Origin: a virus
Lineage: Duplodnaviria; Caudoviricetes
Strand: one strand, 5' to 3'
Length of the DNA: 64,000 nucleotides
IMG/VR virus record: IMGVR_UViG_3300028602_000007
Location: 32,001 to 96,000 of that record
Under the pieces are notes generated by a model. The model worked only from the letters and a program-made list of their open reading frames with translations, was not told the DNA's origin and searched no databases. Position numbers and translations under genes: made by a program. This document shows positions 8,387 to 60,226 of the stretch, piece by piece (the first letter of the stretch is position 1; each line of letters opens with the position of its first letter).

Positions 8387-8489
8387 ATATCTTTATTTAA
8401 CATTTTAATTATCTATATTTTATATACAATACTAATAAAGTTTTTATTATGTATGTTATTAATAGAAGACTTGAATAAATAATAAAGAT

Positions 8490-8675
8490 ATGGAAAAAAC
8501 TCATAAAAATGCAAAAAACTATAGAGAAGGCAAAGAACCTTTGTCAAATGCAGTACTTCAACACCCAGACGGAAGCCCAGTTTATGATTACATAAAAGGA
8601 AAAATTGAAAGAAATTTCTGGGTTATTCCATTTAAAAAATGGAATAACAATCAAAAAATTACACATAAACAATGA
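8490..8675 (+). CDS. small hypothetical late protein
   Basis: 61-aa ORF right after AATAAATA (8474-8481); overlaps the next gene. Confidence 0.55.
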   Translation: MEKTHKNAKNYREGKEPLSNAVLQHPDGSPVYDYIKGKIERNFWVIPFKKWNNNQKITHKQ

Positions 8676-9196
8676 AAAAAATAGAAAAAATTGATATTGG
8701 AGATCTTCCTATTTTTAATGTAATTGATACGAACTTAACTGAGCCCGAACAAACAGTTGAAATTGATATAGAAAAACAAATTAATCAAAATGATTTAAGT
8801 GAACCTCCAAAAAATAATGATTTAAATATATCAGTTTTTATATTAGCATTATTACGCATTGCTGATCAAGCGAAAGTTATTCACTTTCAAGCAGACACTA
8901 AGCATGAACATATTGAATTTGGAAATTTTTATGATGAATTCATTATAATAATGGACGACTTAGTTGAAAGTATTTTAGGAAAATATGGGTTAAACGAATT
9001 TAAATTCGGATCAGCAAATTTAGAGTTAACTGATAGAGACCTTGCGATTTCTAACTTTTTTACTGATATTGATTATATGCTAAGAGAAGTTCCTAATCAA
9101 ATTTTTGATAAAGAAATTGATAATGAAATTTTTGCAAAGATAGATGAATTATTAATGCTAAAAAATAAAACGCAATATTTATTGCTATTTAAGTAA
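8672..9196 (+). CDS. ferritin/Dps-like four-helix protein (DUF5856-like)
   Basis: HFQ...H...GNFYDE...DDLVE...GKYG and C-terminal KTQYLL pattern. Confidence 0.6.
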   Translation: MKKIEKIDIGDLPIFNVIDTNLTEPEQTVEIDIEKQINQNDLSEPPKNNDLNISVFILALLRIADQAKVIHFQADTKHEHIEFGNFYDEFIIIMDDLVESILGKYGLNEFKFGSANLELTDRDLAISNFFTDIDYMLREVPNQIFDKEIDNEIFAKIDELLMLKNKTQYLLLFK

Positions 9197-9197
9197 T

Positions 9198-10811
9198 ATG
9201 TTTAATGTAAAACGGATAAATCAATTAGAAAAAATTCTACTAGAATCGAATTTAATAAAAACAAATCAACAATTTGTTGCGATAAATCAAGATTATCAAA
9301 AAGCAAATAATGATAATGATAAATCAAATATATATCAAAGATTAGATTATTTAATTGATATGATGATTGATCAACAAATTATTAATTTTGAAAAAGATCT
9401 TGAACAACCAATTGGTGAACGTGAATTTGGCTCTGATTATGGAACTAAATTAATTATCGAATATTTAAAATATTGTAAAACTAGATTAATTAAACTAAGT
9501 GAATTAATTAATGTTGAACTTAAAAAAAGTAGCATTAATACTGAAAAATTAAAAAGTTTATCAATTGATAGAATTAAAATAGCTGCTAGAATCGAAGCAT
9601 TAGATCAAATATATACAGCATTTAAAAAAATTAATGATCAAGATTTACATGAACGAGCAGAATCAGTCTTATCTGAAATTATACGAATCAAATCTGAAAT
9701 GACGAATGCATATGCTAAATCAATTGAAGAGATTGGACTTGCGATTAAAGAACCATTAATTTTAATAAAAAAACAAGATAAACAAAAAGAACAAAAAAAA
9801 GAGTATGCAGGTTCAATATTAACTAAATTAAATGGATTAGATACAATTATTCAATTTTATCCAGCTGATGATAAAAAACAAGCTGAGCAAGCTGAGAATA
9901 CAATAGAAGGAACTATTATAAATGAAATTGGAAATGAAGATTTTGAGAAAATAAAAAAAGAAATTTTAAATAGTGAAGAAGAACTTGTAATATTAAGAAG
10001 AATTTTAAGATTAAAGTACATGCATTTTGGAAGTGAAGAAGATCTATTTAAAGAAGTAGATCAAATAAAAGTTTCGATAAATGGACTTGAAGGAACTCGA
10101 AATAGAATGCCAATTTCTAAACCTGCAGCAATCACGTATTTGCGAAAAGTATTACAAGATGAAGTTTCTAAAATTTTAGCTAATATGAGAGCTAAAAACA
10201 TAACAACTAAAGAAACTAAAGGAATTCATTATGATTTTAATATTAAATTACCATTATATACAAAAGTTGCATTGTCAGTTAATGGAAAACAAATTGCAGA
10301 TAATTCAAAAATTATGAAATTTAGAAAAAGGTTTCAATCTATAATGGATTTAATACCGGCTGGATCAATCGAAACTACTCCAGCTGGAGAAGCTTGGGCA
10401 AATTTTGGACAACAAACACATTTAGCATACGCAAAAGTATTGAATAAAGCAGGTAGAGTTATAGGAAAAATGGTTGGTGGAAGAGAAGGGGAAATGAAAG
10501 GAGATGCTATAACTAGATTACTTATACCTAGTACAGATGTACTAAATAATGATAAATTAAGATCAAATGAAACAATTAATGAAGAAGGAAGTCCTGTAGC
10601 CGGTGGATCTACTCCAGGGACAGCATATCAAGTTCCCAGTAGTATTGGATCGCAAGGGGCAATACAACCACCAACTGAAAATACAATTGGATCTGGAGAT
10701 AAATTTCAGCCAGGAATACCTAAGAAAAAAACTAAAAAGAAAAAGAAAAAGAAAAAGACAGTATATGAAAAAAGGTTAACTGTTATGAATTTTTCAACAT
10801 TTTCAAAATAA
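9198..10811 (+). CDS. probable head-associated protein with capsid-N-arm-like C-terminal segment and poly-Lys tail
   Basis: 537-aa helical ORF; C-terminus PGTAYQVPSSIGSQGAIQPPT..GSGDKF followed by KKKTKKKKKKKK. Confidence 0.55.
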   Translation: MFNVKRINQLEKILLESNLIKTNQQFVAINQDYQKANNDNDKSNIYQRLDYLIDMMIDQQIINFEKDLEQPIGEREFGSDYGTKLIIEYLKYCKTRLIKLSELINVELKKSSINTEKLKSLSIDRIKIAARIEALDQIYTAFKKINDQDLHERAESVLSEIIRIKSEMTNAYAKSIEEIGLAIKEPLILIKKQDKQKEQKKEYAGSILTKLNGLDTIIQFYPADDKKQAEQAENTIEGTIINEIGNEDFEKIKKEILNSEEELVILRRILRLKYMHFGSEEDLFKEVDQIKVSINGLEGTRNRMPISKPAAITYLRKVLQDEVSKILANMRAKNITTKETKGIHYDFNIKLPLYTKVALSVNGKQIADNSKIMKFRKRFQSIMDLIPAGSIETTPAGEAWANFGQQTHLAYAKVLNKAGRVIGKMVGGREGEMKGDAITRLLIPSTDVLNNDKLRSNETINEEGSPVAGGSTPGTAYQVPSSIGSQGAIQPPTENTIGSGDKFQPGIPKKKTKKKKKKKKTVYEKRLTVMNFSTFSK

Positions 10812-10820
10812 TTACAAATA

Positions 10821-11534
10821 ATGAATTTTAAAATACAAGATCGAGTTATTATAAAAAGTAAAGACCAAGAAGAAGAAAATATGAAAATATTTCAAAAATT
10901 ACAAGGTATTCCCGGTATAATAACTGATATTTATTATAATGATTATGCGCCAGAAACGCAAAGATATGAAGTTACAATAAAAAAACCAATAATAACAGAA
11001 GACGGAATTGAGCTCACAGTAATTGATGGGTTATATAATGAAAATTTATTAATGGCAAATAATCCAGATAAAATATCTGAAAATAATCATGCAATTACTT
11101 CATTTTTGGTATATGAATCTATAGAAAACGGTTCATGGTATTATGGATTAGTTGATTGTCATGGAATTATTTCATTTATTAAAGAGCCTGATGAATCAGA
11201 TGAATGGAGCGATGTTGATCAATTATTCGATATAGGGCTAATTGATATAGATTCTAGCGATTCTCCTGAAAAAAAAGAATATAATAAAAAGGTTAATATG
11301 ATGAGCATGACAGCTCGAGCAAATCAACAACGATATACTCTTGTATATCGAGCAAAAGTTTCACCAGAAACAGCTACCGATATTAGTTTATTATTAAAAA
11401 AAGGAAACGAGGAAGAAGCATTAAATATATTAAAAAATGAAGCAATCGAAGTTCAGCTTGCAAAAAATGGTGGAATTAATTTAGAAAAAGCATGGGATAA
11501 AATCCCAAATCCAATGCTCGATCCTATGTATTAA
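10821..11534 (+). CDS. hypothetical protein, possible N-terminal SH3/KOW-like domain
   Basis: 237-aa ORF in the late operon; FKIQDRVII start; internal ITSFLVYE. Confidence 0.5.
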   Translation: MNFKIQDRVIIKSKDQEEENMKIFQKLQGIPGIITDIYYNDYAPETQRYEVTIKKPIITEDGIELTVIDGLYNENLLMANNPDKISENNHAITSFLVYESIENGSWYYGLVDCHGIISFIKEPDESDEWSDVDQLFDIGLIDIDSSDSPEKKEYNKKVNMMSMTARANQQRYTLVYRAKVSPETATDISLLLKKGNEEEALNILKNEAIEVQLAKNGGINLEKAWDKIPNPMLDPMY

Positions 11535-21747: not shown

Positions 21748-22620
21748 TTGGAAAAAGAAACATATTATTCTATATTAGGAATCACAAAAGAAGCAACTGA
21801 TAAAGAAATTAAAAAAGCATATCGAGATCTTTCTAAAAAATATCATCCAGATAAAAACCCAGATGGAGAAGATATGTTTAAAAAAATAACAGAAGCATAT
21901 TCAGTATTAAGTGATCCTATAAAAAAACAGAATTATGATATTTCTGGAAATCCAGATAATTCATTGAATTCTATGTTTAGTCATATGACTACTATTATCC
22001 GAGCAGAACATCTAAATGTATATTTGGAAGAATCATTGTCAATTCTTGAATTAATAAATGGCGTAAACCGTACACTTAAATATACAATAACTAATTCTAG
22101 TTTATCAGAAAGTAAAACTGAAGAAAAAAAAGTTACTTATAAAATTAATATGTCAACTTCAACATATCCAATGATTATGTTAGATGATAAAGTTGGGATT
22201 GTATTAAAAGTTAAAGGAGCTGGCTCTAATCAAGAAATTGAAGGATTTGGAATGGGATTTGGCGGTAAAAAAACAATGTTAGCGTCTGGCGATTTATATA
22301 TTAAAATAAATATAGATTGGAAAGATCTTATTTTATCAGAAAATGGCGATCTTATTCATAATTATGAAATGCAATTATATGATATATTATTTAATGACGA
22401 AAATGTATTAGAAACAGTTTTTAATAAAAAATATAAAATAAAAAAGATTAATTCTAAATCTTTAGATAATATTAAAATTAAAATACCTAAAATTGGAATA
22501 ATGAACAATTTTGGAATTAGAGGATCTTATATTTTTAAAATTATTCCAATTATGCCAGATCTTTCTAAACTTAATGAAGATAAACTTACCTCTCTTAAAG
22601 AATTGCTTAGAAACCTTTGA
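21748..22620 (+). CDS. dnaJ: DnaJ-family co-chaperone
   Basis: J-domain YYSILG...IKKAYR...KYHPDKN with HPD motif; C-terminal GDLYI; TTG start. Confidence 0.9.
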
Positions 22621-22691: not shown

Positions 22692-24689
22692 TTGACTAAT
22701 ACTGCGACATTACTTAATAGTAAAACAAAGCTTTCTCCTAATGAAGTTTTAATTTTAGAGAAAGTAAATTCGCCATTAACATATTCAGAAGATAGTAGCG
22801 GCGATATTATAATGGAAGGAACTTGTGCGGTATTCGGTAAAATGAATGATAATAACCGAGTATATGAAAAACAAGAATACCTACCACATTTATCATATCT
22901 TTCTGAAAAAATCAAAAAAGGCCAATTATTTGGTGAATTAGACCATCCTCAAAGTTTTGATGTTTCCTTAAAAAACGTATCTCATGTAGTAGAATCATTA
23001 ACATATGATGAACCGAGTAATAGTGTAAAAATAAGATTACGGATACTAAATACTCCAAGTGGAAGAATTGCAAAAACTCTTATTAAAGCAGGTGCAACTA
23101 TTTCAAGTTCATCAAGGGCAGCTGGACAAGTTTTAGAGAATGGAACTGTTAAACTACATAAGATTTTTACTTATGATTTAGTAGCAGAGCCTGGATTTAA
23201 TGAAGCTGCTCTATCTAAAGTTGCTGAAAGTTTACAAGGTAATTATAGCATGATATTAGAATCATTAGATACACTTCAATCTACTTCGATTACTAACAAG
23301 TTAGTTGACATTTCTGAAAATTTAAATTTTTCAGATTCTGTGAAAATTTTTAAAATAAATAATTCTGATATTAATAAGACTTCACAAAATAATGAAAATA
23401 TAATGGCTAATGACTATGTAACTAGAGAGGAAATGAATCAATATTCTGAAGTTGTTAAGAAAAGATTTTCTCAATTAAAAGAAAGTATTTCTAAAAATAA
23501 TGATGATTTGTTAACACTTTCGGAAAACAGTACAGATAATAATCCTATTACAGAAAAACTTATAGAATTTACGAATTACCTAGCAGGCGAAATGCAACAA
23601 ATTATTGAATTTACAGATTATTTGTCAACTATGATGAATAAAGGAATTGGATATACTGAACACGTTGCTGAAAAAGTTAATAATGTAATTGATTATTCTG
23701 ATTATTTAGCAGGAATGACAAGTAAAAATATTGATTTTTCTAATTACTTAGGAGAAAAACTTAATCAAGGATTAAATTATACTGAGTATGTTGGAAATAT
23801 GACAGAAAAAAGTATTTTATTTGGAAATTACTTAGCTGAAAACATTAATAAAGGAATTGCATATACTGAATATATTGGGGAACAGACATCAAAAGGACTT
23901 AATTTCTCTAATTACTTAGCTGAAAATATTAATAATGCTATTAAGTATTCTGAATATCTAGGTAGCAATATCAAAAAAGGAATTGCATATACTGAATATA
24001 TCGCAGAAACGATGAATCAAAATGTTGGATCAACAGCTTCTGCTAAAACACGAAGACTATTGTCTGATGTTACTGCGTTAAATGAAAATAAAGAAATTGC
24101 AATAAACGAAAATTCATCAATTGATAATATTGTAGCAGCAGTAGATGGAATAATCGAAAACATTTCATCGAATTCAGCAAAATCTGTTTTAGAAAATAAA
24201 TACCCATTCTTAAAATTCTTAACTGAATCTAATAAGAAAAAGTTTTATTCATTAGATAAAGATATGCAAAAAGCAATTGTTGAAACTCTTAGTGGAGCAG
24301 TATATTTCAATGAAGAACAAGTAATTAGTTTAATGGAAGCAGTAATCAATAAAGAACAGGAAAATATTCCTAACTATATTAGATTTATGCCACCTACATA
24401 TAAAGAAATTTATGAAAATATGGATAATTCTGAAAAAAATATGATTGCTGCACAAGCATCAGTAGTAACAGTAAATACTCCATATCAAGTAAAAGCTTTT
24501 TGGGATTCAAGAGATTTACGTGCAATAAATGAAAGAATTGCAAGAAATGAAGAAATAAATAAAAATCAAAATACAGCAGTTAACGAAAGCCGAAGTAAAG
24601 AAGGATTAGTGTCGTTAGAGTCTGTATACGAAAGTATGCGTGGATATTCAAATGCATACTTAGAAGCTCTCAAAAGAAGAGCGTATTAA
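22692..24689 (+). CDS. gp21: prohead protease (gp21-like) fused to scaffold/core domain
   Basis: NDNNRVY, GELDHP, VSH, TPSGRI, SSRAAG, TYDLVAEPGF gp21 motifs; long helical C-terminal region; directly upstream of gp23. Confidence 0.9.
   Translation: MTNTATLLNSKTKLSPNEVLILEKVNSPLTYSEDSSGDIIMEGTCAVFGKMNDNNRVYEKQEYLPHLSYLSEKIKKGQLFGELDHPQSFDVSLKNVSHVVESLTYDEPSNSVKIRLRILNTPSGRIAKTLIKAGATISSSSRAAGQVLENGTVKLHKIFTYDLVAEPGFNEAALSKVAESLQGNYSMILESLDTLQSTSITNKLVDISENLNFSDSVKIFKINNSDINKTSQNNENIMANDYVTREEMNQYSEVVKKRFSQLKESISKNNDDLLTLSENSTDNNPITEKLIEFTNYLAGEMQQIIEFTDYLSTMMNKGIGYTEHVAEKVNNVIDYSDYLAGMTSKNIDFSNYLGEKLNQGLNYTEYVGNMTEKSILFGNYLAENINKGIAYTEYIGEQTSKGLNFSNYLAENINNAIKYSEYLGSNIKKGIAYTEYIAETMNQNVGSTASAKTRRLLSDVTALNENKEIAINENSSIDNIVAAVDGIIENISSNSAKSVLENKYPFLKFLTESNKKKFYSLDKDMQKAIVETLSGAVYFNEEQVISLMEAVINKEQENIPNYIRFMPPTYKEIYENMDNSEKNMIAAQASVVTVNTPYQVKAFWDSRDLRAINERIARNEEINKNQNTAVNESRSKEGLVSLESVYESMRGYSNAYLEALKRRAY
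23354..23361 (+). promoter_or_regulatory. internal late promoter for a nested scaffold ORF
   Basis: AATAAATA about 40 nt before in-frame ATG 23403. Confidence 0.45.
23556..24017 (+). repeat. eleven imperfect 14-aa repeats in the scaffold domain
   Basis: Periodic (K/N)xIx(Y/F)(T/S)(E/D/N)YLAE-type units, e.g. KGIAYTEYIGEQTS, KGLNFSNYLAENIN. Confidence 0.8.
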
Positions 24690-24706: not shown

Positions 24707-26413
24707 ATGGCAACATCAAAAATTTTCAAAAAGTTAAACGATCAGCATGTAATTGATACGTGGATGCCTATTTTGGAAAGCTATGGAGCAAGCAAAGAGA
24801 CTTTAAATGCTAGACCTTGGTTAGTTGACATAGCACATTATCATGCAATTTTTGATAATGCAGGCGCAGTTAACGAATCAACTGCACCTGGTTTATTTTA
24901 TCAACAACCTGGTTCAGTTAGCAATATGGGTTCAATTAGTGCACCAACTAGCTCAATGACTCCTTTTTCAGCATTCGGTGCTGGAACCGCAGCTAAAGCA
25001 AGTTATGCAAGTTCTGGATCTGGTGATAAATTCCCGAGTTTACTTCCTGTAGCTATTCAAGTTGCAGCTAAAACTATTGGTTTTGATATGGTTGGTGTAG
25101 TTCCTATGGACGCACCGGTTGGTTTCTTACCATATTTAGATTATGTATACCAAGGTGGTAATACTGATCAAGAATACAATCCATTCGTAGTAAAAATTAA
25201 TGGAGTTAAAGGTTCAACTGTTCTTACTACAGGAGGAACATTCTCTCAATTAATTAGTGGTGACACTGCTACTATTACAGTTGGTGGTGATGTATTAACA
25301 TTATCTTTTATTGGTTTCTCAAGAGTTGACGGAACTGGTATGTGGAAAGTTATTAGTGATTCATCAACTAGCGGAGAAAAATCATTAGCTGATTATATTA
25401 CAACTGGTAGTGTTTTCACAACGGCAACAATTGCAGGAGCTGCATTAGTTAAAACTTATACACTTCTAGCAGCAAATACTCCATCATTAGTATCTGCATT
25501 AGAAAACCATATTTCTGGATTCACAACTTCATCTGATGCAAATTATGCAACTGATGCATGGGACGGACCATATCTTGGAACAACTGATTCTCAAATCGAA
25601 GGAATGAAGAGAGAAACAGCAGAAGTTTCTAAATTCCGTCAAATGGGTTTAAAAATGTTCACTAAGTTCGTTGAAGCTAAGGGCGACCAAGTATCTGTCT
25701 CAGCAACAGTTGAGCAGATCCAAGATCTTAATAGAGTTTGGAACTTTGACGTTATTTCTATGTTAGAAAATGTTGCAGTTAACGAAGTGGCACAATCAAT
25801 TAACAAAAAACTTGTTGATAGATGCTTTGCACTCGGAGCAATACATAAAACTAACATTGATGCAATCGAAGGTAGTGGAATTACTACATTGGATTTAACA
25901 GTTGGTTCTGGATTCGAAAATGTTTCTACTCTACAACGTAGAGTTGTTACTAAGATCTTAGAAATGGCTAACTTGATTTATCACAGAGGTCGTTTTGGAG
26001 CAGGTACGCATATCGTTACTAACGGTAGAGTAGCATCAGCTCTAGCAGACGTATCTGGATATTCAATCGCACCATTTAATAATGATCTTCCATCAGGACC
26101 TGGACAATTATATCCAGCTGGTAAAGTTCACGGTTTAACAATTTATGTTGATCCTAACCTCAAATTTGGTGATAATAGAATTCATATTGGACGTAAAGGC
26201 GCAGATGAAGAACCAGGTATTAAATTCTTACCTTATATCATGGCAGAATCTCTACAAACTATTTCCGAAGGTACATTCTCACCAAAAATTGGTTTAAAAT
26301 CACGTTATGCTATTACTGAAGCAGGATGGCACCCAGAAACTCAGTACATCACAATGACTGTTAATGGTCTTGGAGTACTTACTGGATCGGTTGCTCCTTC
26401 TACTGCGTATTAA
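24707..26413 (+). CDS. gp23: major capsid protein (T4 gp23-like)
   Basis: VGVVPMDAPVG, NEVAQSINK, IYVDP, PYI...TFSPKIGLKSRYA motifs; highly expressed-type codon usage. Confidence 0.95.
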   Translation: MATSKIFKKLNDQHVIDTWMPILESYGASKETLNARPWLVDIAHYHAIFDNAGAVNESTAPGLFYQQPGSVSNMGSISAPTSSMTPFSAFGAGTAAKASYASSGSGDKFPSLLPVAIQVAAKTIGFDMVGVVPMDAPVGFLPYLDYVYQGGNTDQEYNPFVVKINGVKGSTVLTTGGTFSQLISGDTATITVGGDVLTLSFIGFSRVDGTGMWKVISDSSTSGEKSLADYITTGSVFTTATIAGAALVKTYTLLAANTPSLVSALENHISGFTTSSDANYATDAWDGPYLGTTDSQIEGMKRETAEVSKFRQMGLKMFTKFVEAKGDQVSVSATVEQIQDLNRVWNFDVISMLENVAVNEVAQSINKKLVDRCFALGAIHKTNIDAIEGSGITTLDLTVGSGFENVSTLQRRVVTKILEMANLIYHRGRFGAGTHIVTNGRVASALADVSGYSIAPFNNDLPSGPGQLYPAGKVHGLTIYVDPNLKFGDNRIHIGRKGADEEPGIKFLPYIMAESLQTISEGTFSPKIGLKSRYAITEAGWHPETQYITMTVNGLGVLTGSVAPSTAY

Positions 26414-26519: not shown

Positions 26520-28214
26520 ATGGAAAAACAAATTAAAGAATTAAGAGAAACTTTAAAATATAAAAAAGAACATAAAATACGAATAATTAAAGAACTTAAA
26601 GAATTATCAATTAATCAACAATTAATTGATTATATCATGATTAAATATGATATAAAAGATTTAAATATTTCCCAACTATTATATGAAGTGTTAACTGATG
26701 GAACTAACTCTACTTGTGTTTGTGGAAGAAAAAAACAGTTCTATCGATATTCATCAGGATATCACAAAACGTGTGGAAAAAAAGAATGCATAGACATAAG
26801 TAGAAATAAAAATTATAAAAAAACTATTAAAAATAAATATGGAGTAAACCATGCAACTCAACTAAAAACAACTAGAGATAAACAAAAACAAACAATGTTA
26901 AAAAAATATGGAGTCGATCATAATTCAAAAGGAGAATTAAGACAAAATTATACAAATACAATGTTAAAAAAATATGGAGTCGATTCGCCATTAAAAAATA
27001 AAGAAATATTAGAAAAAAGAAATAATACTGTTTTATCTAAATTTGGAACATTAGATTTCATACAATCAAATAAAACAAAAGAAACTAATTTACAAAAATA
27101 TGGATTTGAAAACGCAGCAAAAAATGAAAAAATTAAAGAAAAAATTAAAGAATCAAACACTAAAACCAGTATTAAAATCGCAGCAAAGAAATTACAAAAA
27201 CACGATATCGAAATAATAAAGTATTATTCAGATTCTCAAAAATATGAACTACTTTGTAAAAAATGTGGAAATTCTTTAAGTTTACCAGGATGCTCAGTTA
27301 ATACTAGATTAAGACAAAACGAATCGCCATGTTTGATTTGTAATCCATACGTTCCAGATAAATCAAGTTCAAATTTAGAAAAAGAAATTATTGCTTTTAT
27401 TAAAGAAATATCAAACATACCAATTTTAACTAATTATAAACAAGCAATTAAAAATATTGAATTTGATATTTATTTCCCTACTAAAAAAATTGCAATTGAA
27501 GTTAATGGAGTATATTGGCATTCTGAAATTTTTAAAGAAAAAAAATATCATTTTACTAAATCACAATTAGCAATAAATAATGAAATTAAAGTATATCAAA
27601 TATGGGAAGATGACTGGAATTTGAATAAAGAATTAATAAAAAATATGATTAGTATTTGGTTAAATCATGACATTACAACTATTTATGCCAGAAATTGTAA
27701 TATAAAAATAATTAATAATAAAACAGCAATAGACTTTTGTAATACTAATCATTTAAAACGTGGAAAATCGTCAACTATACAAATTGGATTATTTAATAAA
27801 ACTGAATTAATTGGGGTTATGACATTTTTAAAAATAAAAAATATATGGCACTTAGATCGATTATGTTTTAAACAAAAAACTAAAGTGATTGGTGGAGCAT
27901 CTAAGTTATTAAAATTTTTTATTAGAAACTACTCTCCCAATAAAATTTTAACAAAAGCCGATGTTGATTTAAGCCCAGATAAAAATAATAACGTTTATCA
28001 AAAATTAGGATTTAAAAATATTGGATGGACTCAGTCTTATAGTTGGGTAATAAATGGAATTAGAGAAAACCGCCGTAAATTTACAAAAAAGAAATTAGTT
28101 AAACTTGGATATTCAACTAAACTTAGTGAATCTGAAATAATGAGTAATCTAAAATATTATAGAACTTTCGAAAGTGGAAATTGGTCATATTGTTTAAACT
28201 CTACAAACTTATGA
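26520..28214 (+). mobile_element. free-standing homing-endonuclease-like gene (KYG repeats, Zn ribbons, Vsr/DUF559-type PD-(D/E)xK nuclease, C-terminal GNAT-like region)
   Basis: CVCG, repeated KKYGV(D/N), CKKCG/CLICNP, EFDIYFP...AIEVNGVYWH...IWEDDW; sits immediately after gp23. Confidence 0.75.
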
Positions 28215-28269: not shown

Positions 28270-28692
28270 ATGGGTAAAAATGTTGTTATGTCATATGATG
28301 AATTTCTATTAGAAAAGAAAACTAATCAAGAACTAAGTAATTCTACTCCAAGCGGAAGTAAAATTTCTAATTCAGTAAATGACAATATGGCTAAACTGCC
28401 AGAGAAAAAAGGATCTACTCCAAATAAACGAACAGATTCTAATATGGCTAAAATGCCAGAGAAAAAAGGAAGTATTCCTAAAAAAAGAGTAAATCAAGGT
28501 ACAACGACTTTGCCTACTAAAAAAGGATCTGCTCTAACTAAAGTAATTAATCAAAATACCGCAGATCTTCCAAAAGGAGGAAGTTCATTAAGTAAAACAG
28601 TTGATCCAAAAATGGCAAAAATGCTAATTGGCAAAGTTACTCCAAATGCAGCAGTTAATAAAGCATATACTGGAATGAAAAATAAAAAATAA
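28270..28692 (+). CDS. basic repetitive protein with CTS-like N-terminus (probable internal head protein)
   Basis: MSYDEFLLE followed by ~20-aa repeats NMAKLPEKKGS; late promoter 28225-28232. Confidence 0.6.
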   Translation: MGKNVVMSYDEFLLEKKTNQELSNSTPSGSKISNSVNDNMAKLPEKKGSTPNKRTDSNMAKMPEKKGSIPKKRVNQGTTTLPTKKGSALTKVINQNTADLPKGGSSLSKTVDPKMAKMLIGKVTPNAAVNKAYTGMKNKK

Positions 28693-29220: not shown

Positions 29221-29628
29221 ATGAAAAAACTTATATTTGATTATAATAGTTTTGTAAATGAAATGTTTAGGTCTGATTTAAAACCTAGAATTAAAAAAGA
29301 TTTTATAGACCCTAATAAAGTTTATGATTATACTATCGGAAATGCAAAACTTGATCAATTAGTTTCAAATTATAATTTTAAACCAGAAAATCAAAGAATT
29401 AATATTTTACCTAATGATACTGTTCGATTTTATATAACTGAACCTGGTAAATTTACTCATATTAAAAATATAATAAAGAAAAAAATAAACGATGACATTA
29501 AAAAATATAAAATAGAAGATCCAAAAATCGAAATTTATTATAATGTCATTAATGGAATATCAGATAATCCAGAATTATCTCAAAAAGTTGAAATTGTTGG
29601 AGTATTAGCTGCAACTTTTATTGATTAA
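29221..29628 (+). CDS. hypothetical protein with CTS-like N-terminus
   Basis: FDYNSFVNE. Confidence 0.55.
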   Translation: MKKLIFDYNSFVNEMFRSDLKPRIKKDFIDPNKVYDYTIGNAKLDQLVSNYNFKPENQRINILPNDTVRFYITEPGKFTHIKNIIKKKINDDIKKYKIEDPKIEIYYNVINGISDNPELSQKVEIVGVLAATFID

Positions 29629-29645
29629 TAAAATATAATAATATT

Positions 29646-30104
29646 ATGGAAAAAACAATTATTACTGATTATAATACTTTTATAAAAGAAAGATATAATC
29701 GTTCAATTAATGAAAGCTTTGAAGCTGACAATATTGAAAATGACAATACCGAAAACACAGAAGATCTTACAGATGATAATTTAAATAATGAAGAACAATC
29801 CGACTTTGATTATATTAGTAAAGAAGAATTAATCAAGAAAGCAGAAGAATCAGAAGAACCTATCATTATTGTAACAATTACCGAAGATGAGTTAGATGAA
29901 TTTATAAATGAAGTAGACGATGAAATAAAAGATCGTTTTGAAATATTTAAATTTGGCGAACCTACTGAAAATGAGGAAGAAGCTAAAACTGAAAATGATT
30001 TAATGGCTGATAATATTGAAGATAGTAACGAAGAGCTTGAATATTCAAAAACTATTCAAAGTCGATATGGTGCTAACGAATCTGATTTTAATAATGAAGA
30101 TTAA
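29646..30104 (+). CDS. highly acidic protein with CTS-like N-terminus (core-like)
   Basis: TDYNTFIKE...SINE followed by E/D-rich body. Confidence 0.55.
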   Translation: MEKTIITDYNTFIKERYNRSINESFEADNIENDNTENTEDLTDDNLNNEEQSDFDYISKEELIKKAEESEEPIIIVTITEDELDEFINEVDDEIKDRFEIFKFGEPTENEEEAKTENDLMADNIEDSNEELEYSKTIQSRYGANESDFNNED

Positions 30105-31877: not shown

Positions 31878-32573
31878 ATGGACATGTTTAATGTAAAAAG
31901 AAGAGATTTTCCAAAAACGTCAAACTTTACAGAAATTGACAAACCTCCATTTGGTGGTCCAAATGAAACTGAAAAATTTGATGGAAATACTAGAAAATCT
32001 TTAGATAAATATCAACGAAAAATAGAAAGAAATCATAAAACTGAAGGGCAATTAACAAATCCACAAACTGGAGAAAAAATGTTTCAGCCAAATTATGATA
32101 GCGCATGGAATGCAATGTCTAAAGACAAAGTAAACAGAGATGCAAAAATAAAACCAACAAAAATTATGAATGCAAAATCAACAGTTTTTACAGATAAAGT
32201 AAATGAAAAGGTTCAAATATTAACATTTGATAGATTTGTTAATGAAAATTTTGAAAATGAAGAAGAATTTCAACCTGAGTATATGCAAAATGAAGAAGAA
32301 GATCCTAATTTAGAAAATCAAATGGAAGAGCCTTTAGATACTGCATATGAAGTCGATGAAGAACAATTAGAGTCAGTTATTGAAGAATATGGTGATGACC
32401 TAAATGAAGTTATTGATAAAATTATAGAAGAATTAGAGATTGAAAAAGAAGAAGCTGTTGATTTAATTTGTGCAGCAATTGAAAAATTATGTAAATCTGA
32501 AGAAAATGACGAAGAATTACAAAATACGGAAGATGCTGAATTAAATAATGAAGATAATTTAGAAATGAATTAA
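31878..32573 (+). CDS. hypothetical protein, basic N-half and acidic C-half with internal CTS-like motif
   Basis: VNEKVQILTFDRFVNE at the charge boundary. Confidence 0.5.
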   Translation: MDMFNVKRRDFPKTSNFTEIDKPPFGGPNETEKFDGNTRKSLDKYQRKIERNHKTEGQLTNPQTGEKMFQPNYDSAWNAMSKDKVNRDAKIKPTKIMNAKSTVFTDKVNEKVQILTFDRFVNENFENEEEFQPEYMQNEEEDPNLENQMEEPLDTAYEVDEEQLESVIEEYGDDLNEVIDKIIEELEIEKEEAVDLICAAIEKLCKSEENDEELQNTEDAELNNEDNLEMN

Positions 32574-48480: not shown

Positions 48481-49143
48481 TTATGATAAATTTTCCTGAT
48501 TTTCTTGATTCTCAATATTATCATCTTCACTTTTATCAATTTCATCTTCGTTTGAAGATTCTCCTCTAAGTTTAGCAAAAATTTCTTCTAATACTCGAAT
48601 AGTATCAGTCGAATCATTGTGTAATATTCCAGTACCTCCAGCATTTGTCCATTTTTCAATATTACTTTCCTTATCATCAATTAAAATATCATTTTTTCCT
48701 TTAACGAATAAATCTTTTTTACTTGATAAAATTACTCTTAATTCTGGACGCTCTTCGTGCTCTTCTGGAGTAGTTACTGCTTTTCGCTGACTAAACCCTA
48801 AATTTAATTTAATCCATTGCAATTTACCATCTTTTGAATAATCACTTCTGCTTGGAGAAGATAAAATATATGGTTTATATCTATCTAAATAATCCCATAA
48901 CTCTCGACCATCTTTTGTCCAAGGCAACCTTTTCCAAAAATATTCTTTACGTTTATCAATTATTTTCCAAATTGAATGCTTTCCGAATTTATCTTCATAT
49001 TCTTTTGGAGTTCTATGATGTTTGTTTGCTTTTAACCGTTTAAATCCACGTTTAAAATCAGTTAAAACTCCATCCATATCACAAAAAATACGAATTGGAG
49101 TTTCAGGCTGTAATTGTTCATTAATGAATTCATTAAAATTCAT
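48481..49143 (-). CDS. 5'(3')-deoxyribonucleotidase-like HAD phosphatase with CTS-like N-terminus
   Basis: FCDMDGVLTDF, ILSSP, K, LIDD; probable start MNFNEFINE at 49143. Confidence 0.85.
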   Translation of the reverse strand: MNFNEFINEQLQPETPIRIFCDMDGVLTDFKRGFKRLKANKHHRTPKEYEDKFGKHSIWKIIDKRKEYFWKRLPWTKDGRELWDYLDRYKPYILSSPSRSDYSKDGKLQWIKLNLGFSQRKAVTTPEEHEERPELRVILSSKKDLFVKGKNDILIDDKESNIEKWTNAGGTGILHNDSTDTIRVLEEIFAKLRGESSNEDEIDKSEDDNIENQENQENLS

Positions 49144-49159
49144 TATTGTGTTTTTTAAA

Positions 49160-49474
49160 TTAGTCATATGTTTTAAAGTCAAATGATTTGTTTATAGAAT
49201 TATCTATAATGCCAATCAAATCATTTGCCATCACTGCATGATATAAAGTATCATTTAATTCAAGATCAAGTCCTGAATATTTTAAATACAAAACTTTATC
49301 ACCAATTTTAAATGGTGAATTCTGTAACAAATGACCAACTGCAACTATGGTTCCACTATTAGGTCTTTGTCTAGTTTCTGGTGGTAAAATTATACCAGTT
49401 TCAGTTTCTTTTTCAACTTCATCTGGTTTAATTAAAATTCTTTCATATAACGGGATAAATCCTGGATTTTCCAT
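49160..49474 (-). CDS. groES: co-chaperonin GroES
   Basis: PLYERILIK, TETGIILP, GTIVAVG, GDKVLY.KYSG. Confidence 0.92.
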   Translation of the reverse strand: MENPGFIPLYERILIKPDEVEKETETGIILPPETRQRPNSGTIVAVGHLLQNSPFKIGDKVLYLKYSGLDLELNDTLYHAVMANDLIGIIDNSINKSFDFKTYD

Positions 49475-58621: not shown

Positions 58622-60226
58622 TTATTGAGCAGTTTTATTATTTTCATTAGGTTTACTAACAATTAAACAATCAGTTGTTAATAATAATGAAGAAATTGAT
58701 ACTGCATTTTCTAAAGCAGTAATAGTTACTTTAACTGGATCAATTACTCCCATTTTAACTAGATCTCCGTATTCTTCGGTTTTTACATTAAAACCAAAAT
58801 ACTTATTATCTACAGAATTTGTAGATTTAATTTTATCCCAAACAACATCTGAACTTATTCCAGCATTTTCTAAAATAATTCTAAATGGTTGTTGACATGC
58901 TCGTTTAAGTAAATCAATACCTAATTGTTGATCTCTATTATCAAGAGTAAGAGTTAATCTATCTGCAGCTAAAGCAAGTGGAGATCCTCCACCTGGAATT
59001 ATTCCGTTAGCAATTGCTGCTCTAGTTGCACCAAGTGCATCATCAATGCGATCGGCTTTTTCTCGAGCTTCAATTTCAGAAGTTGCACCAATTTTAATAA
59101 TTGCAACTCCTCCTTCAAATTTAGAAAGCCGCTCTTTTAATAAAAGTTTAGCAGATTCATCTTTTGCATTATTAATTTGATATTTTATTTCTTGAATACG
59201 TTCTTTAATTTTAGAAGAATCTCCATTTCCACCAATCATTATAGTTTTTTCATTGGTTATTTCAAGTCTATCACACGAACCTACATATTCTGAAGCAACT
59301 GCATCTGATAAAGTAACTCCTTCTAATTGGGAAATTAAAATACCGCCAGTCAAGATTGCCATATCTTCAAGCTGGTGTTTTTTTAAATCACCATATCCAG
59401 TATACCGAATAACAGCTGCTCTTATTTTACCTTTAATTTTATTAAGAAGCATTGTGTTTAATGCATCACCTTCCATTCCATCACAAACGATTAAAATAGG
59501 ACGACCTTGTTGATTTGAATATTCTAAATATTGAAGTAGTTCTTTTAAATTTGAAATTTTACCATCATAAAATAAAATAATTGGATTATCAAATTCAACT
59601 GTAGAATTTTCAATATTTGTAATAAAATATGGTGAAAGATACCCTACGTTTAATTGTAATCCTTCTACTATATCTACATAAGTTTCAGTAGTTTTACTTT
59701 CACCCATAGTAATAATTCCGTCAAATCCAACTTGTTCAATTGCATTTGAAATTAATTCACCAATTATTTCATCGTTATTTGCTGAAATAGTAGCAACTTG
59801 TTTAATTTTAGTTAAATCTTTAACAGGAATACTTTGATTATTCAAATCCATTATGATTTGTTTAGAGGCAAGATCTATTCCTTTTTTTAAATCCATCGGA
59901 TGCGCTCCTGAAAAAATTAAACCATTTCCTTCATTAAATATAGAACTTGCTAATACAGTAGCAGTAGTTGTTCCGTCTCCTGCTTCTAGTGACACTTTAT
60001 GTGCAACTTGTTTAATCATTTGTGATCCAACATCATTTACATAATCTTCTAATTGGAATTCTTTTGCAACAGTTACTCCGTCTTTTGTAATAGCTACACT
60101 ATTATCTCTTGCAATTACTACATTTCTACCACGAGGGCCCAATGTTACTTTAACTGCATTAGATAATGAATTGATTCCAGTTAATAGTGAATCTCTAGCA
60201 GATGTATCAAAAAGTACTTTTTTCAA
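58622..60226 (-). CDS. groEL: chaperonin GroEL
   Basis: VKVTLGPRGRNV, ITKDGVTVAK, AGDGTTTATV, PGGG, GVIDP; TTG start; no GGM tail. Confidence 0.96.
   Translation of the reverse strand: MKKVLFDTSARDSLLTGINSLSNAVKVTLGPRGRNVVIARDNSVAITKDGVTVAKEFQLEDYVNDVGSQMIKQVAHKVSLEAGDGTTTATVLASSIFNEGNGLIFSGAHPMDLKKGIDLASKQIIMDLNNQSIPVKDLTKIKQVATISANNDEIIGELISNAIEQVGFDGIITMGESKTTETYVDIVEGLQLNVGYLSPYFITNIENSTVEFDNPIILFYDGKISNLKELLQYLEYSNQQGRPILIVCDGMEGDALNTMLLNKIKGKIRAAVIRYTGYGDLKKHQLEDMAILTGGILISQLEGVTLSDAVASEYVGSCDRLEITNEKTIMIGGNGDSSKIKERIQEIKYQINNAKDESAKLLLKERLSKFEGGVAIIKIGATSEIEAREKADRIDDALGATRAAIANGIIPGGGSPLALAADRLTLTLDNRDQQLGIDLLKRACQQPFRIILENAGISSDVVWDKIKSTNSVDNKYFGFNVKTEEYGDLVKMGVIDPVKVTITALENAVSISSLLLTTDCLIVSKPNENNKTAQ

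Follow-up and report, generated by a model that had tools for sequence, protein, structure and literature searches.

An uncultured jumbo phage repeats the N-terminus of its major capsid protein on another protein, with counterparts in distant lineages and in T4 gene 61.1

Why should a protein that is not a capsid protein carry, close to its end, what looks like the beginning of one? The question is raised by a 64,000-nucleotide stretch of viral DNA (the window; positions 32,001 to 96,000 of IMG/VR record IMGVR_UViG_3300028602_000007), from a 120.8-kb contig; the phage is an uncultured jumbo phage, and its near-complete relatives measure 250-271 kb. An open reading frame (ORF) at 9198..10811 on the plus strand encodes a 537-aa protein, here called the carrier, whose helical body is followed by a C-terminal tail predicted to be disordered. 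Within this tail lies a segment that resembles the N-terminal region of the major capsid protein (MCP; 24707..26413, plus strand), a member of the Gp23 family (PF07068, E 1.4e-40) and the model for the copy. A sequence-only reading of the window had interpreted the segment as mimicry of the capsid arm. We find that mimicry of the MCP maturation site and mature N-terminus by the carrier tail is well supported by sequence comparison, and that the same arrangement recurs in distant phage lineages, including T4.

The copy, like all features of the tail, is read from the plus strand. Just upstream of it stands INE (10575..10583), which ends at E462 and is a site of the (I/V/L)xE prohead-protease type that aligns with VNE of the MCP (24869-24877). 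Block A, of 21 residues (10614..10676), has the pattern PG..YQ.P.S..(..)G.I..PT and matches the first residues of the mature MCP (24887-24949). Block B (10689..10706) is GSGDKF, identical to its MCP counterpart (25016-25033), from which block A is separated in the MCP by a variable linker; it corresponds to approximately residues 85-90 of T4 gp23, directly before the N-arm helix. A Lys tract follows, with 11 Lys in 12 residues (10722..10757), and then an element resembling a capsid targeting sequence (CTS; 10761..10808), composed of a VYE site (10761-10769) and a hydrophobic F..F C-terminal end, ..MNFSTFSK (10782-10808). At the DNA level the Lys tract is a long run rich in A, made of AAG/AAA repeats, where slippage might occur. 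Every feature that the sequence-only reading had quoted, in the ORF tail as in the MCP, is present where it was placed. The MCP segment as a whole (24869..25033, plus strand) corresponds by position to residues 66-90 of T4 gp23*, the N-fist (PMC9958956), and is almost invariant among 56 MCPs.

The significance of the similarity, which had been left to a pairwise alignment, differs between the comparisons made. A single-pair BLASTP alignment of the carrier tail with the MCP gives E 5e-4 (17/56 identities, one 18-residue gap), a value that is borderline alone because about 1800 protein pairs are possible in the window. Profile against profile, the result is clear: hhalign, applied to 29 carrier homologues and 20 MCPs, returned a probability of 96.5% and E 7.5e-10 over 47 columns, in a stretch that begins upstream of (I/V)xE, crosses the 21-residue block, jumps the variable linker of the MCP and finishes at GSGD.F. 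The block consensus PG...Q.PGSI..MG.I..PT is common to both families. A hidden Markov model of the tail motif found, besides its own source, only the MCP in the 120-kb contig (E 4e-8, the next match having E 1.3) and, besides the carrier, only the MCP in a complete 270-kb relative (E 1e-8). Further mimicry in the 537-aa protein was not detected, its full-length profile matching nothing else in two genomes.

Conservation of the tail points to selection for its sequence. For the carrier family, 39 homologues and 23 representatives were collected, of which 29 homologues entered the alignment. Members are 24-61% identical (about 30% outside the tail), and the tail is the best-conserved part of the family; the motif, whose recurrence in homologues had been put forward as the measure of its reality, is nearly invariant down to 24% identity. 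Both copies are present in 18/18 distinct genome pairs, with approximately 12 of the 21 block A positions common to carrier and MCP across the 18 distinct genomes. At the nucleotide level, the two copies in the window agree at 32/63 positions, one common Ser having the codons AGT and TCA, and there is no similarity beyond what the common protein sequence demands. Gene conversion was rejected, since codons differ and identity within genomes is no higher than between them; the similarity is therefore old and kept at the protein level. These alignments establish the copy as real and evidently under purifying selection at the same positions as the MCP, with exactly two carriers of the motif per genome.

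The phage itself is akin, by its capsid protein, to jumbo and mega phages of Bacteroidota and is not a close relative of T4. Its MCP is 29-36% identical to the capsid proteins of huge phages, Lak among them, and 26-28% identical to those of jumbo phages of Tenacibaculum and Chryseobacterium. There is a resemblance to the Bacteroidota-associated 'moraphages' of fresh water (PMC12619734).

Genomes of distant lineages were each searched with their own MCP segment around the maturation site, and each search gave exactly one further match. In Lak-A2, with TAG read as Gln, it was a 76-aa ORF (E 6e-7), conserved in 15/15 Lak genomes, which repeats the Lak-specific ..NT(I/L)GVGDPVP.G and GSGD(R/K)(F/Y) with a linker 11 residues shorter and continues into a Lys/Asn/Ser-rich tract. 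BLAST revealed no synteny between the Lak locus and the window contig. In LR756500 (462 kb), a 140-aa frame matches its own MCP (E 1.5e-7) and reads from an ANE site through ..NVNG.G....PGDP...T.FS.Q..GSGD to KKKK and TFNEF. In the cultured Tenacibaculum phage PTm1, ORF-299 matches its own MCP (E 2.8e-9); here I-x-E, SYG.Q.P.A..GMGAV.LP.VS and RGSGD of the MCP are repeated and followed by a Lys-rich stretch, behind an unrelated N-terminal domain, and the gene lies between those for the portal and the protease-scaffold. That N-terminal domain contains a D-G-H-H motif reminiscent of ParB/sulfiredoxin-type domains, has no significant Pfam match and belongs to phrog_2859, a family of unknown function.

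The same search in T4 retrieved, besides gp23, a single match (E 7e-6): gene 61.1 (NP_049649.1; NC_000866 18966-19130, minus strand), whose 54-aa product is listed as 'hypothetical'. Pairwise comparison with gp23 residues 57-93 gives E 6e-9 and includes the F..FLTE that stands ahead of the cut. The protein consists, in this order, of a CTS, a copy of gp23 residues 66-93 and KKKK. It opens with M-K-T-F-K-E-F-I-K-E, the CTS shared with the internal proteins IPII and IPIII, and a DNA pattern for M-K-T-[YF]-x-E-F-I-x-E has three T4 matches, namely 61.1, ipII and ipIII. In T4 gene 23, the seven residues before the maturation cut, F-G-S-F-L-T-E, fit the CTS pattern F..F(I/L)xE; what the CTS copies may therefore be the cleavage-site region of the MCP itself.

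Phage records with gp61.1 homologues number 1432; in the genomes inspected the gene lies beside that for primase, and several of the homologues have been annotated 'major capsid (domain-containing) protein' by pipelines. Longer forms, in Ac42, V07 and Cronuts, match their own gp23 with E 4e-5 to 7e-10 and share small changes with it, such as GAITN in both Cronuts proteins; they have the layout of the window protein, with an N-terminal domain, an (L/V)xE site, the copy and a basic tail. The families concerned, phrog_1823 for gp61.1 and phrog_2086 for the longer forms, are of unknown function in PHROGs, and Pfam has no family for gp61.1 proteins. The sequence-only reading had held such a copy to be undescribed in T4-like phages. 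This is right as regards description, neither the element nor the nature of gp61.1 being described in the searchable literature, where the protein has incidental mentions only and reviews of the T4 head omit it; but the element itself is present in T4, and is therefore not peculiar to the phage of the window.

Carrier and gp61.1 are alike in combining a protease site or CTS, a copy of their own mature MCP N-terminus and a Lys-rich tract, and in ending the copy at the same boundary before the N-arm helix; in the longer gp61.1 forms, as in the carrier, the copy is C-terminal and follows an [LV]xE site. They differ in that gp61.1 has the T4 version of the sequence, no cargo domain, its CTS at the N-terminus, and an early-class gene next to primase. 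A PHROG scan of the 537-aa protein (0 families) gave no homology to phrog_1823 or phrog_2086, and the relation is one of architecture, not of demonstrable common descent. In each of the five lineages, the copy matches the MCP N-terminus of the lineage in question, stops at the residue before the MCP N-arm helix (a boundary mapped on T4 gp23) and passes into a Lys-rich stretch. The attached N-terminal domain differs between lineages or is absent while the module stays constant, and the module is therefore portable. A copy that tracks the MCP over very distant lineages is what mimicry predicts. We propose proteins with such an MCP N-terminus copy as a class with gp61.1 as reference member; the carrier has its features, that is, similarity to its own MCP, a preceding protease-type site, and an end before the N-arm helix followed by the Lys tract.

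That the carrier is a non-capsid protein, as had been assumed, is borne out by the lack of a Pfam Gp23 (PF07068) match and by an all-helical AlphaFold2 (AF2) model. The model (pLDDT 70) has a helical body at residues 4-332 and helices at 363-442, forming a compact helical repeat with pLDDT 80-90 and no extended coil; pLDDT falls below 50 at residues 334-360 and 453-532. The protein has no Pfam or PHROG match, tblastn against the phage collection gave none, and Foldseek (PDB, BFVD) and ESM Atlas searches with the model returned only generic helical-repeat (ARM/TPR-like) matches or uncharacterised phage proteins. Its most conserved internal segment, aa 333-368 (10194..10301, plus strand), with invariant columns from K333 to D368, is predicted to be disordered (pLDDT 40-54) and, judged by its sequence, is probably a second linear binding motif; it has no match elsewhere in the genome.

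The N-terminal 16 residues (9198..9245, plus strand) read L..(I/L)LxE and form a putative propeptide with a protease site, the invariant LxE at its end being of the [ILV]xE type in 100% of the 29 homologues. Only two such sites are universally conserved in the family, E16 (100%) and E462 (97%), and the total in the 537-aa protein is not enriched (11, against 10.5 +/- 2.8 in shuffles), so that the carrier looks trimmed at both ends rather than degraded as a scaffold. With this count and two conserved sites, a scaffolding protein with many protease sites was not borne out as a candidate identity. The Lys tract and CTS-like end to which the sequence-only reading had drawn attention are both conserved in the family, whose C-terminal consensus is (I/L)(L/M)xFxxF(I/L)KE; the window protein ends ..F..FSK, without the Glu. 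The related pattern [FY]xxF[ILVM]xE occurs 16 times in the contig against 3.6 expected, and six times at N-termini against 0.24. ORFs 27-797, 28270-28692, 29221-29628, 29646-30104 and 48481-49182 (minus strand) have it at residues 8-16, and proteins that start in this way are candidates for packaged, protease-processed proteins.

What the copy does can be approached from the T4 head, where gp21 cuts 65 residues off gp23 (PMC7136217). The new N-terminus of gp23* is disordered and inside the unexpanded head; after expansion it forms the N-arm and a 25-residue N-fist, which touches four subunits and helps to form the Soc site (PMC9546572, PMC9958956). CTS peptides bring proteins into the T4 core and are then cut off (PMC9026906). 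By analogy, we favour, with a confidence that stops a little short of even, the view that the C-terminal 75 residues of the carrier are a portable head-assembly module whose most likely partner is the N-fist/N-arm pocket of the shell. The module runs from a prohead-protease site through a shortened copy of the start of the mature MCP and the Lys tract to the CTS-like F..F end. The carrier would enter the prohead through its CTS-like ends. There the prohead protease would cleave it after E16 and E462, in step with the MCP and at sites of the same kind. The freed peptide would then display an MCP-like N-terminus to whatever partner the MCP N-terminus has, most likely the pocket of subunits that have no donor neighbour, at the portal vertex or beside pentons, and the Lys tract would touch DNA or a surface of acidic character. 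As for the helical body (residues 17-462), it would accompany the peptide as an internal head protein. The shell pocket is favoured because the copy spans the mature part up to a structural boundary, because stand-alone peptides are conserved and because the motif is otherwise found only in the MCP. As for the capsid-arm mimicry first suggested, what holds is a real, selected copy of the MCP maturation site and mature N-terminus on a non-capsid protein, tracking the MCP across lineages.

Several observations weigh against docking in the shell pocket. Within the close clade, the two copies are no more alike in the same genome than between genomes (11.83 vs 11.87 identities, permutation p 0.71), a test of low power because the MCP copy hardly varies; co-variation with the MCP is visible between distant lineages only. 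A more distant group of carrier homologues retains just the first half of the motif. CTS cargo lies inside the T4 head but the N-fist comes to lie on its outer surface, and T4 61.1 is classed as an early gene, with TATAAATA absent from the 1.5-kb T4 stretch examined around it. Five relatives examined have one Gp23-family gene per genome and no gp24-like vertex paralogue, so that sites lacking a donor may exist only at the portal vertex. The carrier gene lies among baseplate genes, in conserved synteny with those for the wedge and hub, and the Lak ORF comes after a tail-tube-like gene. The carrier tail is predicted by AF2 to be disordered, and the AF2 model of the MCP (mean pLDDT 55.6, below 50 in the N-terminal region) is too poor to show a pocket.

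Alternatively, the copy might act in the prohead, binding what holds the N-terminal region of the MCP ahead of expansion, namely the scaffold/protease core. There it would either assemble together with the MCP or be a second substrate, parallel or competing, whose own release is tied to cleavage of the MCP. Several features fit this account, the chief rival, which we regard as possible though on balance doubtful. The similarity extends over both sides of the scissile bond, with ..(I/V)(F/L)D..(I/V)xE upstream and the block downstream, as also in T4 gp23 57-93; the module is always accompanied by CTS-like targeting motifs; the PTm1 gene lies between portal and protease, where T4 has its core genes 67/68; and the N-terminal region of T4 gp23, internal in the unexpanded head, is thought to touch the core (PMC9546572). 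Other presumed protease substrates and CTS proteins, however, are without the motif: a general protease-substrate motif was rejected on the ground that just two proteins per genome bear it, and it is for the same reason no general protease docking signal. Moreover, the spacing from cleavage site to block ranges from 3 to 11 residues, and the copy consistently takes in about 25-45 residues of the mature part, as far as a structural boundary of the shell protein, which fits a role of the mature N-terminus.

A simpler account, and in our judgement an unlikely one, would make the tail a mere address label: it would deliver the helical body to the prohead and, having no role of its own, then be cut off and lost. 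T4 CTS peptides act in this manner (PMC9026906, PMC9958956), a conserved cleavage-type site separates body and tail, and differing N-terminal domains are attached to the module across lineages. Yet there are conserved stand-alone forms that have no cargo, as in gp61.1 (54 aa, 1432 records) and the 76-aa ORF of 15 Lak genomes, with the 95-aa P0182 as a further candidate; and the tail is better conserved than the body it would deliver.

We consider it very improbable that the carrier is a tail or baseplate protein, tape-measure-like or a tail-completion factor, in which the motif would serve head-tail joining or another role outside the head. The synteny with baseplate wedge and hub genes, the position of the Lak ORF and the helical body speak for it. 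Against it, T4-type genomes mix head and baseplate genes (T4 genes 2 and 4 adjoin 53 and 5), the AF2 model is a compact helical repeat and not one long coiled coil, the PTm1 carrier lies between portal and protease, and gp61.1 bears a head-targeting CTS. Chance, low-complexity similarity or a functionless, decaying fragment of a duplicated MCP gene, suggested by a single-pair E of just 5e-4 in a G-, S- and P-rich region, appears effectively refuted by the conservation data: the profile E value, positions invariant across homologues of 24-61% identity, independent recurrence in five lineages with lineage-specific sequence, and the lack of any excess nucleotide-level similarity.

Capsid-binding tails common to two proteins are already familiar from the Staphylococcus aureus pathogenicity island (SaPI) protein CpmB and the 80-alpha scaffold C-terminus, from the nested protease/scaffold genes of herpesviruses and lambda, and from the C-terminal tail of the HK97 protease, where a short terminal peptide lets two proteins use one procapsid docking site. 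There the shared peptide is the tail of a scaffold or protease and binds the MCP, whereas in the carrier it is a piece of the MCP itself. Docking tails are known as a principle; a new and widespread form of it is to repeat the N-terminus of the capsid protein itself on another protein.

Another parallel in T4 is the short F..F(I/L)xE CTS of IPII and IPIII (Mullaney and Black 1996, as summarised in PMC9026906 and PMC9958956), to which the CTS-like motifs enriched here are similar. The prohead protease cuts these proteins after (L/I)xE and their basic products are packaged with DNA (PMC9026906, PMC9958956). Whereas the CTS-like element of the carrier tail is C-terminal, the classical CTS comprises about 10 residues at the N-terminus and is discarded; and the carrier has a copy of the mature MCP N-terminus, whereas IPII and IPIII were not matched in the T4 genome search with the gp23 segment. 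A second comparison is offered by DarA-Hdf of phage P1, a large, partly helical head protein that is processed by the prohead protease and lies in 55 copies on the inner shell at penton-hexon junctions, with a positive surface contacting DNA (PMC12810830). Unlike the carrier, it binds via folded domains and loops, and no copy of the MCP N-terminus has been reported in it (PMC12810830). Pfam, PHROG and fold searches returned no named family that would make the carrier its kin, no direct comparison having been made.

It is a more speculative suggestion, and one we hold only tentatively, that Gp23-family capsids from T4 to the 540-kb Lak phages generally carry an overlooked small component, a free or released peptide that mimics the N-fist/N-arm start of the MCP and fills donor-less pockets near pentons and the portal, its Lys tail tying shell to DNA. 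If this is true, the most thoroughly studied phage has in gp61.1 a new peptide of its head, structural or internal. T4-type head assembly is a textbook system, and the sorting of proteins into the prohead and the completion of the lattice at special vertices are still open in it, localisation to the T4 core having been called 'mysterious' (PMC9958956). The element occurs in T4 and in a cultured Tenacibaculum phage as well as in uncultured jumbo and mega phages, which makes the hypothesis directly testable in a laboratory phage. It may also offer a new handle, beside the CTS, for loading cargo into T4-type capsids, and an annotation rule for a large set of small 'hypothetical' ORFs, some of them now mislabelled 'major capsid protein'.

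The carrier gene belongs to a conserved series that encodes a 639-aa protein, a 521-aa protein, a DUF5856 protein, the 537-aa carrier, a 237-aa protein, a 713-aa protein and the baseplate wedge. The gene of the 237-aa protein (10821..11534, plus strand) lies downstream and is always syntenic. In P0161, 537-type and 237-type proteins are fused in frame via an F..FINE junction, and in P0166 the copy has additional domains inserted before and after it, with the SH3-like part of the 237-type protein within the tail; the tail is therefore built of units parted by protease-type sites. The 237-aa protein has an internal F..(L/V)YE-type site. From gene order and these fusions it is likely to be a functional partner of the carrier and to be processed as well. 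On the other side, the gene of the DUF5856/Dps-like protein (phrog_858; 8672-9196), which is always upstream, ends 2 nt ahead of the 537-aa ORF, and an ATAAATA box at 8475 precedes the pair. The 713-aa neighbour has no match in PHROG, Pfam or PDB sequences. A position of the carrier gene next to the portal was considered and rejected, the portal gene lying about 17 kb upstream, beyond the window.

The presumed processing enzyme is encoded ahead of the MCP gene, as a prohead protease fused to a scaffold (22692..24689, plus strand; phrog_207, E 3e-36; Peptidase_S77/S80). Its scaffold part contains, at 23560-24070, about ten CTS-like tandem repeats with the core (Y/F)(T/S)(E/N)Y(I/L/V)(A/G)E, and CTS proteins may join the core by imitating these repeats. 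Directly upstream of this gene lies one for DnaJ, with a J domain and a C-terminal domain (21748-22620), and a full-length GroEL is encoded at 58622-60226 on the minus strand. Immediately downstream of the MCP gene is a homing endonuclease gene (26520-28214), in the same position as segD in T4 and a Hef-like gene in PTm1.

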